A stretch of DNA of 26,762 bases from Patescibacteria group bacterium (GTDB taxonomy: Bacteria; Patescibacteriota; Minisyncoccia; Phycocordibacterales; Zambryskibacteraceae): NCBI GenBank assembly GCA_038058745.1, contig JBBUAI010000013.1, positions 1 to 26,762 of the forward strand, in the 5' to 3' direction. Each line of letters begins with the position of its first letter. Position 1 is the stretch's first letter. A program made the translations under genes and the position numbers. Shown here piece by piece: positions 4,189 to 10,310 of this stretch. The notes beneath the pieces are model-generated. The model ran no database searches. It saw only the letters and a program-made list of their open reading frames with translations, and was not told the DNA's origin.

Positions 4189-4431
4189 ATGAGAAAGTAC
4201 TTAGCCACGCTTCATAAAAGGCCGCCCCATCATAAAAAGCGTTTCGCGCTCCTTACTTCCGGCGCCTTCACCCTCTTAATCTTTGCCGTCTGGGCCCTGG
4301 TCAATTTTGGCGAAGGCGACGAAACCCCGGCCGCGGCGGAAAAATCTCTTGAAGTTATAAATCCGCTTGAATCCCTAAAAAACAACTTTAGTGATTTGAG
4401 AGATAGCACTCTCGATATTTATGGAAGATAG
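4189..4431 (+). CDS. Small single-TM membrane protein, hypothetical
   Basis: 80 aa with a basic N-terminus, one hydrophobic helix ([14 protein letters not shown]) and an acidic tail. Its 3' end overlaps the gyrA start by 11 nt. Confidence 0.45.
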
Positions 4432-6853
4432 TAAAGACAGAATAATAGCTCGTCCGATAACGAACGAGATGAAGGAGAGCTTCATCGACTATGCCATGTC
4501 GGTCATCACCGACCGCGCCCTGCCGGACATCCGCGACGGTCTTAAGCCGGTGCACCGCCGCATTCTCTATTCGATGAATGAGAAGGGCCTGACTGCCGGC
4601 GGCAAACCAAGGAAGTCGGCCACGGTGGTGGGAGACGTCATCGGCTCATACCACCCGCATGGCGATGTCGCCGTCTATGAATCGATGGTGGTTATGGCGC
4701 AAGACTTCAAGATGCGTTACCCCTTAATTATTGGACAAGGGAACTGGGGTTCCATAGACGGCGATAGCGCCGCCGCTTACCGCTATACCGAGGCCAAGAT
4801 GAGCCGCCTCGCGAGCGAGATGCTCAAGGATATAGAGAAAGAGACGGTCGACTTCAGGCCTAATTATGATGGGACGAAGACCGAACCAATGGTGCTGCCG
4901 GCCTCGGCGCCGAATCTATTATTGAACGGCACCTTGGGCATTGCCGTCGGCATGGCTACCAACATTCCGCCACACAATCTTACGGAAGTAATCGACGCTA
5001 CTATTCATCTTGCCGATGACAAAGACGTCACCACTGAAGATCTTTTGAAATTCGTGAAGGGTCCGGATTTCCCTACCGGCGGCATCATTTTCAATGAGAA
5101 GGACATTCATCACGCTTATGCCACCGGCCGCGGGCCAGTGGTGGCGAGAGGTGTGGCAGACATAGTTGAAGGCAAGAGCGGGCAGTTCCAAATCATCGTG
5201 AGCGCCATCCCTTACCGCGTCAACAAATCCGACCTTATCGAGAAGATTGCGGACTTGGTGCGGGAGAAGAAGATTGAGGGAGTGAGAGGCCTTCGCGACG
5301 AATCGACCAAGGATATTCGCGTGGTCATCGATTTGAAGCAGGGGAGCCAGCCGCAGAAAATTTTAAATGCTCTCTACAAACATACTCAGCTTGAGGATAC
5401 CTTCCACTTCAACCTTGTAGCGCTCGTCGACGGCGTGCCGCAGACCTTGTCGCTCAAGAGCATGCTCGCGGAGTTTCTGAAGCACAGGAAAGAAGTGGTT
5501 AAGCGCCGCTCGGTCTTCGACCTTGCTCGCGCGGAAGAGCGCGAGCACATCCTCCTCGGCCTCTCGAAAGCGCTTGACCACATCGAGCAGGTTATCAAGA
5601 CCATCCGAGCGTCGAAGACCGTCGACGACGCGCGCAGCGCTCTCATGAAGGAGTTTAAGTTCTCCGAAATTCAGGCCAATGCCATTCTTGAGATGCGCCT
5701 TCAGAAGCTCGCCGGCCTCGAGAGGAAGAAAGTAGAGGACGAGCTCAAGGAAGTGCAAGTGTTCATAAAGGAGATGAAAGATTTGCTGGCGTCGCCAGCA
5801 AAAATTCTAAAGGTGGTCAAAGCTGAACTCGAAGCCATCAAAGAAAAGTACGGCGACGAACGCCGCACCAAGGTCGTCAAAGGCGGAGTAAAAGCGCTTT
5901 CTGTCGAGGATTTGATACCGGACGAAGAGCAGGCGCTCGTGCTCACGGCCGGCGGCTATATCAAACGCACCAATCCGGAAGAATACAAGCGGCAGAAGCG
6001 CGGCGGTATAGGGGTGGTAGACCTCGATACCAAAGAAGAGGATTTCGTCTCCATCTTCTTAACCGCCTCCACTCATTCCGACCTTCTTTTCTTCACCGAC
6101 AAAGGCAAGGCCTATAGACTAAAGATGTACGACATACCCGAGGGCAAGCGCGCAACCCGCGGCAAGTCGGTGGTCAATTTCATCTCGCTCTCCGATGATG
6201 AAAAAGTAACCTCCATTCTTGCCATGCCTAAGGAGCTTAAAAATATCGAGGGCTCGCTAACGCTCATTACCAAGAGCGGCACGGGCAAGCGCGTCTCGGC
6301 CAAGTCCTTCCATGATGTGCGCTCATCCGGCATTATCGCTATCCGGCTCGAGCCGGGAGATAGACTTATCTCCGTCGCGCATAGCGAGAAGGGAGACAAT
6401 ATTTCCATCGTAACGAAAGAAGGCATGTCCATCCGCTTCAAGGAATCGGATATTCGCGAGATGGGCCGGGCGGCCGGTGGCGTGCGGGCCGTAAACCTAG
6501 ATAAAGGAGACGAGGTGGTGGGCTCCCACATTATAAAACCGGCATGGAAGAATGCCTGTCTTCTCGTAATCTCGGCCAACGGCTACGGCAAGCGCACCAA
6601 ACTTTCGGAATACAAGGTGCAGGGCAGGGGCGGTTCCGGCATTCTTACTTCGAAAGTTACCGTAAAGACAGGCAAAGTCATGGCATCGCAAATTGTGACC
6701 GAAGAGGAATCGGAAGTCATCGCCATCTCCAAGAAAAGCCAGGTCGTGCGCGTCGCCTTGGATGAAGTGCCGGTGCTCGGTCGTTCCACGCAAGGCGTAA
6801 GAATAATGAAATTGAGAGAAGGCGATTCACTCGCCTCGGTTATCTGCCTTTAG
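4421..6853 (+). CDS. gyrA: DNA gyrase subunit A
   Basis: '[28 protein letters not shown]', '[16 protein letters not shown]' (QRDR region) and 'GKYHPHGD'-type motifs are present. The C-terminal beta-pinwheel repeats are also present. 810 aa. Confidence 0.95.
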
Positions 6854-6899
6854 CCCTATTGGGGATTATTCTCGAGTCCGTCTGTTATAGAATTAAAAT

Positions 6900-8198
6900 A
6901 TGTCCAAGTTTCAGATAATCCTCCTTTCGACTTTCGGCTTCTTCATCATCCTTGCGGTCGTGGTCTTCGCCTTCTATCGCGGGGGCTCGAGTTCTCTTGA
7001 AGCAACAGTTGCAATCTGGGGCGATATCCACGCGGAAGACTTCAATGTTTTCCTTAACAATACCATCCAGAGCCGCGAGGAGAATCTCACTATCAAATAC
7101 AGAGAACTTTCGTCCGAGAGCATCGACCGCGAATTTACCGAGGCGTTGGCGCGCGGAGAGGGTCCTGACCTTCTCTTAACCACCCAAGACAAGTTATGGA
7201 AGGAGAAATCCAAGCTTCTCCCAATTCCCTACGAAAGCATAAGCGAACGCGATTTCAAACAGACTTTCGTTGAAGAAGGAGAGCTCTTCTTGGGCAAAGA
7301 TGGCATCTACGGCCTGCCTTTATCCATAGACCCGATGGTTCTTTATTATAATCGCGACCTTCTTACCACTGCTGGTCTTGCCCAGCCGATTGGCTATTGG
7401 GACGAAATTTATTCGACTATCTATAAGCTCACCCGCCGCGACGGCGCGGGGAATCTCGTGGAGTCCGCTATCGCCTTAGGCGAGGCGAGGAACATCCCGC
7501 ATGCCAAAGATATCCTCTCGCTTCTCTTATTACAGGCAGGCACGCCCATTACAAGCTTTACGGCTCCGCCAGATGGCGGAGAATTGCGCTCATATCTCTC
7601 GGCAAACTTCAACCTCACCGTTTCTCCCGGAGAATCCGCGCTTGATTTCTACACCCAATTCTCAAATCCTTCGAAGCCGTATTACAGTTGGAACAGGACA
7701 TTGCCTCCCGCCCAAGCCCGCTTCGTCTCGGGCGACTCGGCTTATTACTTGGGCTTCGCGAGCGAATTGAAGACTCTCCGCAATAAAAATCCGAATCTCA
7801 ATTTCAGCGTAACCACTGTGCCCCAGTCGAGAGTGCAGGGTAGGACCTTGACCTTCGGTCGCCTGCGGGCTCTCTCCATTTCGCGCGGCACCAGGTCTCC
7901 GGCCGCCGCTTTGAATGCCGCCTTGTCTCTCGTCGCCAAAGATGAGGCCTCGGTCCTCTCCCAAGTCCTTAATCTTCCGCCAGCCCGCCGCAACCTTCTC
8001 TCGCAGGAGCCTGCGGGCGCGGAGATGCCGGTTTTTTATGAAGCAGCTTTGCAGTCGAAGGGATGGCTTGACCCGGATGACGAGCGCACCCGGGCCATCT
8101 TCGGCGAGATGATAGAACAGGTTACGAGCGGCCGGGCGAGGACGCTCGAGGCCCTAAACCAGGCCGACCGCGCCCTGGAAGACGCTATAAAACAATAG
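6900..8198 (+). CDS. Extracellular solute-binding protein (family 1, MalE-like) with N-terminal TM anchor; no ABC partner genes nearby
   Basis: N-terminal TM (IILLSTFGFFIILAVVVFAF). 'ATVAIWGD...GEGPDLLL...LPLSIDPMVLYYNRDLL' parallels MalE 'KLVIW.NGDKG...GDGPDII...YPIAVEALSLIYNKDLL'. Confidence 0.65.
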   Translation: MSKFQIILLSTFGFFIILAVVVFAFYRGGSSSLEATVAIWGDIHAEDFNVFLNNTIQSREENLTIKYRELSSESIDREFTEALARGEGPDLLLTTQDKLWKEKSKLLPIPYESISERDFKQTFVEEGELFLGKDGIYGLPLSIDPMVLYYNRDLLTTAGLAQPIGYWDEIYSTIYKLTRRDGAGNLVESAIALGEARNIPHAKDILSLLLLQAGTPITSFTAPPDGGELRSYLSANFNLTVSPGESALDFYTQFSNPSKPYYSWNRTLPPAQARFVSGDSAYYLGFASELKTLRNKNPNLNFSVTTVPQSRVQGRTLTFGRLRALSISRGTRSPAAALNAALSLVAKDEASVLSQVLNLPPARRNLLSQEPAGAEMPVFYEAALQSKGWLDPDDERTRAIFGEMIEQVTSGRARTLEALNQADRALEDAIKQ

Positions 8199-9178: not shown

Positions 9179-9529
9179 ATGAATAAATTGACCAAAGTCT
9201 GCATTCTCACTCTGGCGGCTATTCCTTCTATGGTGTTCGCGCAAGGGCGGATTATTTTATTGCTTACAGATGTAAAGTACATCATAAGAACTCTTATCAT
9301 CATAGTCGCGGCTATTGCTCTCCTGGTTTTCTTCTGGGGCCTGGTTAGATTTATTTTCAAGGTTGGCGGAAGCGAAGAAGCGGTAAAAGAAGGCAGAACT
9401 CTCATGATATGGGGGTTAATCGCCCTCTTCGTCATGGTTACAGTGTGGGGGTTAATAAGCTTTATAGAAAGGGAAATATTCGGCACTCTTGATAAGAGTG
9501 ACCCTAATATTCCAAGCTTTAGACCTTAG
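9179..9529 (+). CDS. Small two-TM protein with signal peptide, array member 4
   Basis: Signal peptide ending AQG, then 'ALLVFFWGLVRFIFKVGGSEEAVKEGRTLMIWGLIALFVMVTVWGLISFI', clearly paralogous to members 3, 5 and 6. Confidence 0.6.
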   Translation: MNKLTKVCILTLAAIPSMVFAQGRIILLLTDVKYIIRTLIIIVAAIALLVFFWGLVRFIFKVGGSEEAVKEGRTLMIWGLIALFVMVTVWGLISFIEREIFGTLDKSDPNIPSFRP

Positions 9530-9533
9530 AATA

Positions 9534-9877
9534 GTAGGGGATAACCCCCACACCTATTTTTCTATTGTCGCAAATCATATAATACGTCTATGTATTATGT
9601 ATTATGTGTATATTCTAAAAAGTAAAAAAGATAACAATTTGTATTATGGTTCCACAAATGATTTGCGACGCAGGCTAGTAGAGCACAATACTGGTAAAAA
9701 TCGCTCTACCAAAGCTAGAAAACCATTTGAGCTGCGCTATTACGAAGCTTACTATAACGAAAATGATGCCAGAGGTAGAGAGTATTCTTTAAAGAAGGAC
9801 GGTAGAGCTTTAGCGCAGCTCAGGCGGAGGTTAGAAAATAGCCTGCTATAGAGAAATAGGTGTGGGGGATAACCCGG
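9534..9877. mobile_element. AT-rich ~340-bp cassette: GIY-YIG nuclease gene bounded by ~22-bp imperfect terminal inverted repeats, inserted within the two-TM gene array
   Basis: Left end GGGGATAACCCCCACACCTATTT (9537..9559). Right end AAATAGGTGTGGGGGATAACCCGG (9854..9877). The inner 15 nt (CCCCCACACCTATTT) are identical in inverted orientation. Each end also contains a GGGG-ATAA-CCCC mini-hairpin. Cassette GC is about 33% versus about 48% in the flanking genes. Confidence 0.45.
9597..9851 (+). CDS. GIY-YIG nuclease superfamily protein (YhbQ/UPF0213-like), 85 aa
   Basis: 'YYVYILKSKKDNNLYYGSTNDLRRRLVEHN...GKNRSTKARKPFELRYYEAY..ENDARGREYSLKK' carries the GIY...YIG, catalytic Arg and Glu/Asn motifs. 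Start placed at the in-frame ATG at 9597, where the domain begins. Confidence 0.8.
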   Translation: MYYVYILKSKKDNNLYYGSTNDLRRRLVEHNTGKNRSTKARKPFELRYYEAYYNENDARGREYSLKKDGRALAQLRRRLENSLL

Positions 9878-9965
9878 TTGTCTTTATAGTCCCTTGACGT
9901 ATCATAGATATATACCATCAGGTATTAAAATTAGTAGTAAATAGTAGATAGTAAATAGTAAATAA

Positions 9966-10310
9966 ATGAAAAAAGTTATTCTTGCCGCTCTGGCCCTGGC
10001 CCCCTCACTCGCTTTCGCACAGAATCTAGGCAACCTTAATAATCTCATAACCTCCGTTGGCAATCTTGTTGAGCTTGCCTTGCCTATTGTGGTAGCAATT
10101 GCGCTCCTCGCCTTCTTCTGGGGTTTGGTCAAATTCATCTTCTCTGCTTCCGGTGAAGAGGCGCATAAGGAAGGCCAGCGCCTGATGATCTGGGGCCTCG
10201 TTGCCCTCTTCGTCATGGTTTCCGTCTGGGGACTTGTAAAGTTTATCGGCACCGCCCTCGGCGTCCAGCAGGGAGATACCATCATTGTCCCAAGAGTTCC
10301 GGGCATATAG
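9966..10310 (+). CDS. Small two-TM protein with signal peptide, array member 5
   Basis: 'MKKVILAALALAPSLAFAQ' signal peptide, then 'ALLAFFWGLVKFIFSASGEEAHKEGQRLMIWGLVALFVMVSVWGLVKFI'. A tandem AT-rich repeat (gtaaatagtaRat x2, 9937..9963) precedes it. Confidence 0.6.
   Translation: MKKVILAALALAPSLAFAQNLGNLNNLITSVGNLVELALPIVVAIALLAFFWGLVKFIFSASGEEAHKEGQRLMIWGLVALFVMVSVWGLVKFIGTALGVQQGDTIIVPRVPGI

Follow-up and report, generated by a model that had tools for sequence, protein, structure and literature searches.

Ssn proteins, single-domain GIY-YIG enzymes of ca. 94 amino acids (aa) assigned to cd10448, bind a hairpin repeat (NTS/SRM) on single-stranded DNA (ssDNA) and specifically cut such DNA beside the hairpin, the two strands of which may even belong to separate oligonucleotides (Chenal et al., Nat Commun 2025; PMC11893778). 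In that work, 42% of the Ssn homologues were flanked by the repeat on both sides. SsnA modulates transformation in Neisseria. The authors noted that the NTS-ssnA-NTS arrangement resembles an insertion sequence (IS), proposed domestication, and gave mobility as a hypothesis with no evidence of movement; Patescibacteria are unmentioned there (PMC11893778). Here, we analyzed a window of 26,762 nucleotides (nt), the whole of the stretch under study, from a Patescibacteria group bacterium of the Zambryskibacteraceae (GenBank assembly GCA_038058745.1, contig JBBUAI010000013.1, positions 1 to 26,762). It contains a cassette of about 320 bp whose only gene encodes a minimal single-domain GIY-YIG nuclease and which is probably a compact, IS-like mobile element. 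As in the Ssn units, the protein belongs to a single-domain GIY-YIG class of ca. 90 aa (here 84 aa) without an extra DNA-binding domain, its gene has inverted repeats of 20 to 50 nt that can form hairpins on either side (here arms of 28 nt), extra repeat copies are found near the gene in relatives, the architecture is IS-like, and ssDNA is a likely substrate. The initial annotation of the window knew of no IS family that combines a GIY-YIG enzyme with terminal inverted repeats; our full-text searches of the literature likewise brought up no bacterial IS family whose enzyme is of the GIY-YIG type, although the Ssn/NTS units are a described analogue.

The cassette is located between the fourth and fifth (pilin 4, 9179 to 9529; pilin 5, 9966 to 10310; all cassette features given below are on the forward strand) of six small T4SS_pilin-type genes (PF18895; 8218 to 10631), downstream of gyrA (4421 to 6853) and a solute-binding protein (SBP) gene (6900 to 8198). 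Given that all same-species contigs carried the cassette at the pilin locus, empty sites were sought in sister species by means of the neighboring SBP. Two sister genomes with SBP identities of 88% (L038 and L039; L numbers are the labels of the individual loci compared) and 84% (L041) kept the gyrA-SBP-pilin array-Band7 synteny and lacked the GIY-YIG gene there, with a pilin 4-pilin 5 spacer of only 106 to 110 nt. This spacer contains the 9-mer GGGGATAAC once, in the context GTAGGGGATAAC in L038 and L039, and with one difference in L041 (GGGGGGATAAG); the longer empty spacers read CCGTAGGGGATAACGGCATATTGTCTTTATAAGG (L038) and GAATGGGGGGATAAGACAGTTGTGTTTTAAG (L041). Aligned to them, the filled window reads AATAGTAGGGGATAAC, then the insert, from CCCCACACC through the gene to GGTGTGGGGGATAAC, and then CCGGTTGTCTTTATAG. 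The empty target sequence is GTAGGGGATAACCCGGTTG, and the empty junction is CCTTAGAATAGTAGGGGATAACCCGGTTGTC. According to the alignment with L038 and L041, a segment of ca. 328 bp (9546 to 9873, that is, the element plus one copy of the 9-mer) is inserted at a host GGGGATAAC, and the 9-mer now stands on both sides, as a host-derived left flanking direct repeat (9537 to 9545) and as a target-site duplication on the right (9865 to 9873), the G-run of which overlaps the right arm.

A second, independent pair of filled and empty sites was found between the genes for RNase J and an MFS protein, where the copy of L013 is missing from L122 and L123 (relatives with RNase J identities of 96% and 93%, respectively). 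The empty sites there read AACCTGGGGATAACC and AAC-TGGGGATAAC, and a 40-nt hairpin beside the L013 copy is not present in these relatives either. GGGGATAAC is common to the empty sites of both loci and equals the G-run plus loop of the right end of the element. Across the two loci, the neighboring proteins of filled and empty genomes were 84 to 96% identical. At two loci, the cassette is thus present or absent with precise boundaries, and the target site is duplicated, both generic marks of an IS. These comparisons show a discrete insertion whose ends are conserved, with target duplication and target preference.

The ends of the cassette were recovered by a repeat search as inverted arms of 28 nt (9538 to 9565 and 9848 to 9875; 89% complementary, with 282 nt between them) that contain a perfect 15-nt core, CCCCCACACCTATTT at 9545 to 9559 and AAATAGGTGTGGGGG at 9854 to 9868. 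Within the window, the arm 23-mer has two sites, which are the two arms (0.00 expected), and GGGGATAAC occurs only at 9537 to 9545 and 9865 to 9873 (0.15 expected). The left terminal arm proper (9545 to 9565) consists of CCCCCACACCTATTT plus an imperfect inner part, with the box CCCACACC at 9547 to 9554, while the right one (9848 to 9868) begins with an imperfect inner part that overlaps the stop codon (TAG, 9849 to 9851) and continues into AAATAGGTGTGGGGG. The initial annotation had described an open reading frame (ORF) of the GIY-YIG type bounded by inverted repeats between pilin genes 4 and 5, with the inner 15 nt identical in inverted orientation, and both points were confirmed by the arms, their perfect core, and the PF01541 domain. 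Several of its figures needed correction. The gene (9597 to 9851) runs from the ATG at 9597 to the TAG at 9851 and encodes 84 aa instead of 85; the GC content is indeed below that of the window (48.9%) but amounts to 39.0% for 9534 to 9877 and 36.7% between the arms rather than ca. 33%; and the G-run of the left repeat begins 7 nt, and not 5 nt, past the stop codon of pilin 4 (TAG, 9527 to 9529). The gap of 436 nt between pilins 4 and 5 was confirmed; the remaining gaps of the array measure 1, -4, 10, and 54 nt. As for the outer GGGG-ATAA-CCCC hairpins, GGGGATAAC is present on both sides, but on the evidence of the empty sites they are not purely part of the element, the left GGGGATAAC being the host target and the right one its duplicate. 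The third-position GC content (GC3) of the GIY-YIG ORF was 37.6%, compared with 48 to 71% in the neighboring genes.

In total, about 90 related cassettes were gathered from Patescibacteria metagenomes. The protein has hundreds of close relatives there, nearly all of exactly 84 aa (a word-limited search gave 404 clusters at the level of 90% identity; in a search of 1.84 billion representatives, the E value was ≤1e-10 for 749 clusters and ≤1e-3 for 6829). The exact window protein is on record in NCBI GCA_964367465.1 (CAYIXK010000002.1), and one distant representative is a "GIY-YIG nuclease family protein" in a Vogelbacteria metagenome-assembled genome (MAG). When 185,579 species genomes were searched for the arm core with gaps allowed, 15 loci were obtained, each in a different genome and all in Patescibacteria, and 12 of the 15 had the ORF of 84 or 85 aa. 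A protein-based metagenome scan added 80 further loci, with arms in 72 of the 78 that had enough flanking sequence, and the right arm began 0 to 2 nt past the stop codon in nearly all relatives. Close homologues (71 to 88% aa identity) that had the same ends were found in no fewer than 60 unrelated contexts, and there were 64 distinct flank pairs among the elements; homologues 83 to 85% identical, for instance, had UPF0102 and an exonuclease gene on either side, were located 5' of mraZ, or separated MFS and RNase J genes, with the same flanks throughout. Terminal inverted repeats conserved among copies, another generic property of an IS, are therefore present as well. The small mobile or selfish element suggested at the outset is supported by these contexts and by the empty sites in L038, L039, and L041, and the proposed search for copies and empty sites did reveal the latter, along with gene-less copies in relatives (see below), although only one full copy per genome was seen in the 15 MAGs.

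Five elements (L061, L068, L082, L087, and L088) were 97 to 99.6% identical in DNA and shared the same left gene and ca. 45 nt of right flank, beyond which they had four different right-hand neighbors, partly in the same metagenome samples. This pattern suggests element-associated rearrangement or several copies per genome. In addition, N-run scaffold gaps started exactly at the outer end of the element (L009/L010, 4281 to 4380; L024, 6618 to 6716), as expected if the element is an assembly-breaking repeat, and many homologues were on contigs of <1 kb.

The invariant part of the ends is the box CCCACACC/GGTGTGGG, which was invariant or nearly so in 60 aligned elements. The inner 7 to 10 bp of the arms vary among elements and retain their complementarity (TATTT/AAATA, TGTTTTG/CAAAACA, TTTCATT/AATGAAA, and AATCCCT/AGGGATT are examples). 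Flanking direct repeats of 5 to 11 nt were found outside the box in about 45 of 58 elements. They comprise the final G's of the right arm, a "loop" of 4 to 6 nt, and in some cases also the initial C's of the left arm, so that right end, repeat, and left end together give a perfect palindrome, and the cassette ends are its two halves, with a stem of 15 to 17 bp. Such a tandem junction was present at the RNase J-MFS locus in two samples (L018, 1 to 100; L019, 4255 to 4326), in which a right end is joined to a left end via one shared GATAACT (AAAAGTAGGTGTGGGAG-ATAA-CTCCCACACCTACTTTT). The junction is a perfect palindrome with a 17-bp stem (AAATAGGTGTGGGGGATAACCCCCACACCTATTT), and the contigs end within the second copy. 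This is either a tandem copy or a co-assembled circle. In five other samples, the same locus had a single copy.

Among 64 distinct loci, the ends were of the GATAAC type in 19 cases plus 4 in mirror orientation, 9 were at the 3' end of tRNA-His, and 32 were of other types; many left ends elsewhere read TGTGGATAA. The insertions at the tRNA-His 3' end were found in both orientations, with the tRNA overlapping the arm by 3 nt and a 9- to 10-nt copy of the tRNA end (TAGGCACCC) on the far side (L021, 1431 to 1503; L022, L025, L027, L032, L046, L047, L051, L060, L064, L065, L090, L092, L103, and L105). Related copies have inserted at other GGGGATAAC-like sites, at the tRNA-His 3' end, and elsewhere. 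A strict clade-specific target "address" was considered and rejected, since a single protein clade (at least 85% identity) holds GATAAC, mirror, and other end types. Given that end types vary even within a protein clade, the repeat is taken to be a target-derived duplication, and the target preference is, by this comparison, for sites that resemble the element's own end and not for a fixed address.

The outer edge of the GATAAC type often reads (C/G)TGTGGATAAC, and this sequence includes a 9-mer that is a perfect DnaA box (TTATCCACA in the complementary strand). Loci with this edge were L003, L009, L013, L023 (ca. 1290 to 1305), and metagenomic ones such as L053, L066, L085, L093, and L117, with L058, L078, L081, and L114 in mirror orientation. 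The idea of a DnaA-box target was discarded, as the window has 5 DnaA boxes versus 4.2 expected and the empty sites read GGGGATAAC; we keep it as a mere resemblance.

The termini were also found without the gene. In about 0.5 Mb of flanking DNA collected from relatives, CCCACACC occurred 148 times versus 4.4 expected, and about 20 distinct gene-less units of 31 to 171 nt had the element termini and similar flanking repeats, among them a recurrent form of ca. 130 nt. Two units are internal-deletion derivatives that keep promoter-proximal and stop-proximal parts (L072, 1323 to 1449; L080, 1316 to 1486). At L023 (519 to 1300), three of these minis (about 80, 140, and 125 nt) are arranged head to tail with one full copy, and a further site of this locus (5606 to 5649, the same as L108) is listed with the cluster, while at L024 (6478 to 6790), tandem units of ca. 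78 nt have the same left terminus and a scaffold gap between them. No cargo other than the GIY-YIG family was seen between arms, which otherwise bound gene-less minis.

The cassette DNA folds strongly as a single strand. The predicted free energy was -63.8 kcal/mol for the plus strand (z score of -8.5 versus shuffles) and -58.8 kcal/mol for the minus strand (z score of -7.3). To the alignment of 60 distinct elements, we applied RNAalifold with 500 shuffles and slid-partner controls, and two helices were obtained, P1, formed by the terminal arms, and P2, which joins 9567 to 9578 with 9658 to 9669 (alignment columns 43 to 54 and 143 to 152). The 5' strand of P2 (GTCGCAAATCAT) is noncoding DNA directly upstream of a -10-like hexamer and is the perfect 12-nt complement of the 3' strand (ATGATTTGCGAC), which lies within codons 21 to 25 of the nuclease (N-D-L-R-R). 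Over the 28 pairs tested, 96.8% of the cells were paired, compared with 81.0% in shuffled and 36 to 57% in slid alignments, and double-sided changes numbered 266 versus 71 expected; none of the 500 shuffles reached the observed values. Compensatory changes were found in 8 of the 9 P2 pairs, and synonymous or conservative codon changes in P2 (e.g., GAT TTG CGA to GAC TTA AGG) were matched upstream. A third stem of 12 bp in the window copy (9728 to 9739 with 9811 to 9822) is lineage specific. The covariation shows, for this set of sequences, that the secondary structure of the cassette DNA is under selection. Given that nearly all pairing was of the Watson-Crick type, with G-T in only about 29 of 1666 cells, that both strands fold, and that the 5' strand of P2 is upstream of the probable promoter, we infer that the selected structure is DNA and not mRNA. 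P2 could be an ssDNA recognition structure or, alternatively, could inhibit read-through transcripts by folding back, by analogy with IS10. Altogether, the covarying stems point to an ssDNA form of the cassette.

The product of the gene has a GIY-YIG domain at residues 3 to 73 (PF01541; E value of 6e-18; 65.4 bits versus a cutoff of 22.6). The AlphaFold model (pLDDT of 88) has the strand-strand-helix-strand-helix-helix topology of this fold, and Foldseek matched it to 1zg2, Slx1, I-TevI, and UvrC. The nearest solved structures are the UPF0213 proteins BH0048 (1zg2; profile E value of 9e-10) and EF2693 (1ywl) and the Slx1 nuclease domains, the latter being the best crystal matches after 1zg2 (TM score of 0.61 to 0.67; 26 to 29% identity). 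In a plasmid collection, the nearest annotated gene was Bacillus subtilis yazA (40% identity). The similarity to TIGR01453 (group I intron endonuclease) was well below the cutoff (E value of 8e-5; 22.7 versus 56 bits), as were all matches in the NCBIfam scan of the protein; neither PADLOC (defense) nor PHROGs (phage) gave any match, and an Rfam scan of the cassette gave none at an E value of ≤1. In 31 homologues, 70 to 87% identical to the window protein and with a mean column identity of 80%, residues Y3, Y5, Y16, G18, R25, R26, H30, N31, and E50 were invariant and E62 was conserved in at least 90%. This set of two Tyr, Arg, His, and Glu is of the typical active-site type, and we infer catalytic roles for these residues.

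The gene probably has its own promoter, the -10-like hexamer TATAAT at 9578 to 9583, which is conserved in the alignment and ends 6 to 7 nt 5' of the ATG in 46 of the 60 elements, a distance from which a leaderless mRNA is predicted. The sigma-70 scan did not call this hexamer, as the -35 region is poor. In the window copy only, there is a 7-nt tandem duplication, ATGTATT-ATGTATT (9590 to 9603). The canonical leaderless ATG (9590), 6 nt past TATAAT, here opens an out-of-frame ORF of 11 codons, and the second ATG, which is 13 nt away from the hexamer, is the start of the intact GIY-YIG ORF.

How might such a unit move? The initial annotation treated the nuclease as a passenger or as a free-standing homing-endonuclease-like gene. 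The nuclease is more likely a cognate partner of the ends than a passenger, because the arms accompany nearly all evaluable homologues. If it acts as a partner of the ends, as in the Ssn/NTS pairs, the arms would pair on ssDNA (the lagging-strand template or incoming transforming DNA) and extrude the cassette, and the enzyme would recognize the CCCACACC/GGTGTGGG box and nick at the base or the loop. Host repair or ligation would then finish excision or copying, with reinsertion at sites that mimic the "G-run plus loop" end of the element; since the target mimics the end, the duplicated target would extend the inverted repeat. Expression would proceed from the internal -10 as a leaderless mRNA. 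The further step, that the 84-aa protein itself mobilizes an unclassified insertion-element family with its own miniature inverted-repeat transposable elements (MITEs), via a folded ssDNA intermediate and with targets chosen by resemblance to or pairing with its own end, is in our opinion possible, and we propose it tentatively, as somewhat short of an even chance.

Several observations weigh against a mobile, nuclease-driven element. GIY-YIG enzymes hydrolyze DNA without rejoining it, and the joining is left to host functions. The connection from nuclease to movement is the association of gene and arms in the genomes compared; the published SRM motif is absent, and the nearest annotated relatives are UPF0213/YazA proteins, not a proven Ssn. 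About 13 of the 58 elements have no clear direct repeat, and the repeat does not have the same sequence on both sides in the L013 lineage (TGTGGATAACT versus GGGAGATAACT). Along similar lines, a single full copy was found in each of the 15 representative MAGs, although MAG assembly may collapse repeats; no further arm copy was found in the 26.7-kb window or in a 20-kb stretch (L001) of its 55-kb contig; some loci persist vertically across related species; and the search of viral contigs gave 0 copies. Finally, the 7-nt duplication may reduce the expression of the window copy.

The main rival explanation is domestication, in which an Ssn-like system arrived horizontally, no longer moves by itself, and serves the host, for instance, by cutting repeat-bearing ssDNA that is incoming or being replicated, with the flanking arms as mere recognition sites of the nuclease. 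It is compatible with past mobility and differs from a still mobile cassette only in the current beneficiary. Patescibacteria rely on DNA uptake, which we count in its favor, together with the single copy in each of 15 MAGs, the long persistence of some loci, and strong conservation of the protein (mean column identity of 80% in 31 homologues). Domestication is also the interpretation favored for Neisseria in the Ssn paper (PMC11893778). Nonetheless, precise and recent insertions relative to genomes with 84 to 96% identical neighbor proteins, tandem copies and deletion derivatives, and the foreign composition all make it unlikely for the cassette. In another rival explanation, the GIY-YIG gene is cargo, and a site-specific recombinase (integron-like, Xer-like, or other) acts in trans on the palindromic junction and moves the cassette. 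This would account for the attC-like perfect palindrome of the tandem junction, for the core shared by ends and target, and for the head-to-tail clusters of cassettes and minis. However, the arms occur almost only around one gene family or gene-less minis with no other cargo seen, no integrase or recombinase domain was recorded within 10 kb of the window copy, and no recombinase recurs at the other loci with genes listed, so we consider this quite improbable.

Two further candidates are weaker still. A free-standing GIY-YIG homing endonuclease gene, which would spread by cutting a cognate allele and being copied into it through double-strand-break repair, has in its favor the domain, the weak similarity to TIGR01453 far below the cutoff, and site-specific targets. 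Yet a protein of only 84 aa without a DNA-binding domain, terminal inverted repeats, target duplication, and mini copies hardly fit it, and the targets are short motifs in unrelated intergenic regions instead of one conserved allele; its probability is very low. Lower still, practically negligible, is that of a vertically inherited housekeeping gene of the UPF0213/YhbQ type with a promoter and a terminator as flanks, for which the best solved relatives (BH0048 and EF2693) and the best annotated one (YazA, 40%) could be cited. It is contradicted by the empty sites, the gene being absent at this locus from L038, L039, and L041, and by homologues in at least 60 contexts, arms that covary across the gene, and low GC3. 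The initial annotation had already set the housekeeping reading aside, and it had named two outcomes that would speak against a mobile element, namely, a cassette at the same position in all relatives and ends that are ordinary terminators. The nearest relatives have precise empty sites, there were 0 terminator-like sites in 9400 to 10050, ends included, and the arms are found almost only with the gene family or the minis; we therefore rejected the terminator-hairpin reading of the ends. An IS-like mobile cassette thus remains the explanation that we consider probable.

The position of the cassette inside the pilin array appears incidental, the sole link being a host spacer that carries GGGGATAAC. 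The array itself turns over quickly, and the number and length of the pilin paralogues vary, with six in the window and L041 and four to five in L038 and L039. The conserved codons for V-W-G-L in the pilins read GTGTGGGGGTTA at 9443 to 9454 (also 9407 to 9419), which is perfectly complementary to the left-arm segment TAACCCCCACAC (9542 to 9553), and the array has several sequences that resemble the end or target of the element and that may be due to chance. Just 5' of pilin 5, there is a 14-nt tandem repeat, TAGTAAATAGTAGA/TAGTAAATAGTAAA (9935 to 9962), at which same-species short-read (Logan) contigs break (end of L002, start of L037). In a sister genome, a gene of ca. 190 aa with a PaaX_M domain lies between gyrA and SBP (L038, 3299 to 3871; L039 and L040), which is missing from the window at 6853 to 6900. 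Genes of this type are also near other GIY-YIG loci (L005; L009, 6503 to 7072; L122, 1 to 402), and this may be another variable or mobile gene.

The movement of Ssn-type units was left open in 2025, and this locus and its ca. 90 relatives make the question directly testable, as they include sites with and without the element, a defined target and its duplications, a junction of the tandem or circle type, and nonautonomous derivatives. They suggest that the smallest known nuclease fold can drive, or form the core of, a transposable element. If the nuclease does mobilize the cassette, this would be DNA-guided transposition by a hydrolytic nuclease, distinct from that of DDE, HUH, serine, and tyrosine enzymes. 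In practical terms, a pair of nuclease and recognition box (the CCCACACC stem) is now defined for ssDNA tools, and a repeat family has been identified that disrupts assemblies and rearranges the gene order of Patescibacteria genomes.

In order to place the cassette among known systems, we compared it with several types of small repeat-bounded units and GIY-YIG proteins. It resembles REP/BIME-RAYT units (REPtrons) and the "peel-and-paste" elements IS200/IS605 in having a small gene flanked by palindromic repeats that also exist as gene-less copies, a strong single-strand structure of the ends, and insertion beside a short specific sequence related to the element end. However, the enzyme is a hydrolytic GIY-YIG nuclease and not an HUH/Y1 transposase, no ORF for which was found in the cassette (the sole ORF with a domain match is the GIY-YIG one), and the true terminal inverted repeats and flanking duplication are both lacking in IS200/IS605. 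The minis of 31 to 171 nt, which share only the termini and have similar flanking duplications, are reminiscent of MITEs, Correia/NEMIS, RUP, and ERIC, although known bacterial MITEs are mobilized by DDE transposases of recognized IS families. With integron attC cassettes, it has in common the one-gene format, a tandem junction that is an imperfect-loop palindrome, and head-to-tail cassettes and minis; in contrast, no IntI integrase or attI was recorded within 10 kb of the window copy, and the cassette has its own putative promoter and inserts at many dispersed sites.

Among GIY-YIG proteins, those of UPF0213 (Escherichia coli YhbQ, B. subtilis YazA, BH0048 [1zg2], and EF2693 [1ywl]) have the same minimal fold but are single chromosomal genes with no reported terminal repeats, whereas the cassette is an insertion that sister genomes lack. 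Slx1 cleaves DNA according to structure, at branches or stem-loops, and this would fit an enzyme that works at a stem base, but Slx1 is eukaryotic, has a RING domain, needs Slx4, and has no association with mobile elements. The repeats differ from those of Ssn. The SRM pattern HGTCWYN(0-2)YYVSBRHN(0-5)WNVSBRGN(0-2)RNCYNB had 0 hits on both strands of the window and was found within 150 nt of the gene in 0 of 81 loci, and the cassette ends are halves of one palindrome instead of two self-contained hairpins. By analogy, then, the cassette is Ssn-like in architecture and enzyme type and not in repeat motif. Patescibacteria are a new host phylum, and, unlike for the Ssn units, genome comparisons directly document insertions, duplicated targets, copies in tandem, and deletion derivatives for the cassette family, which supports the view that Ssn-like nuclease/hairpin units probably insert as mobile elements.

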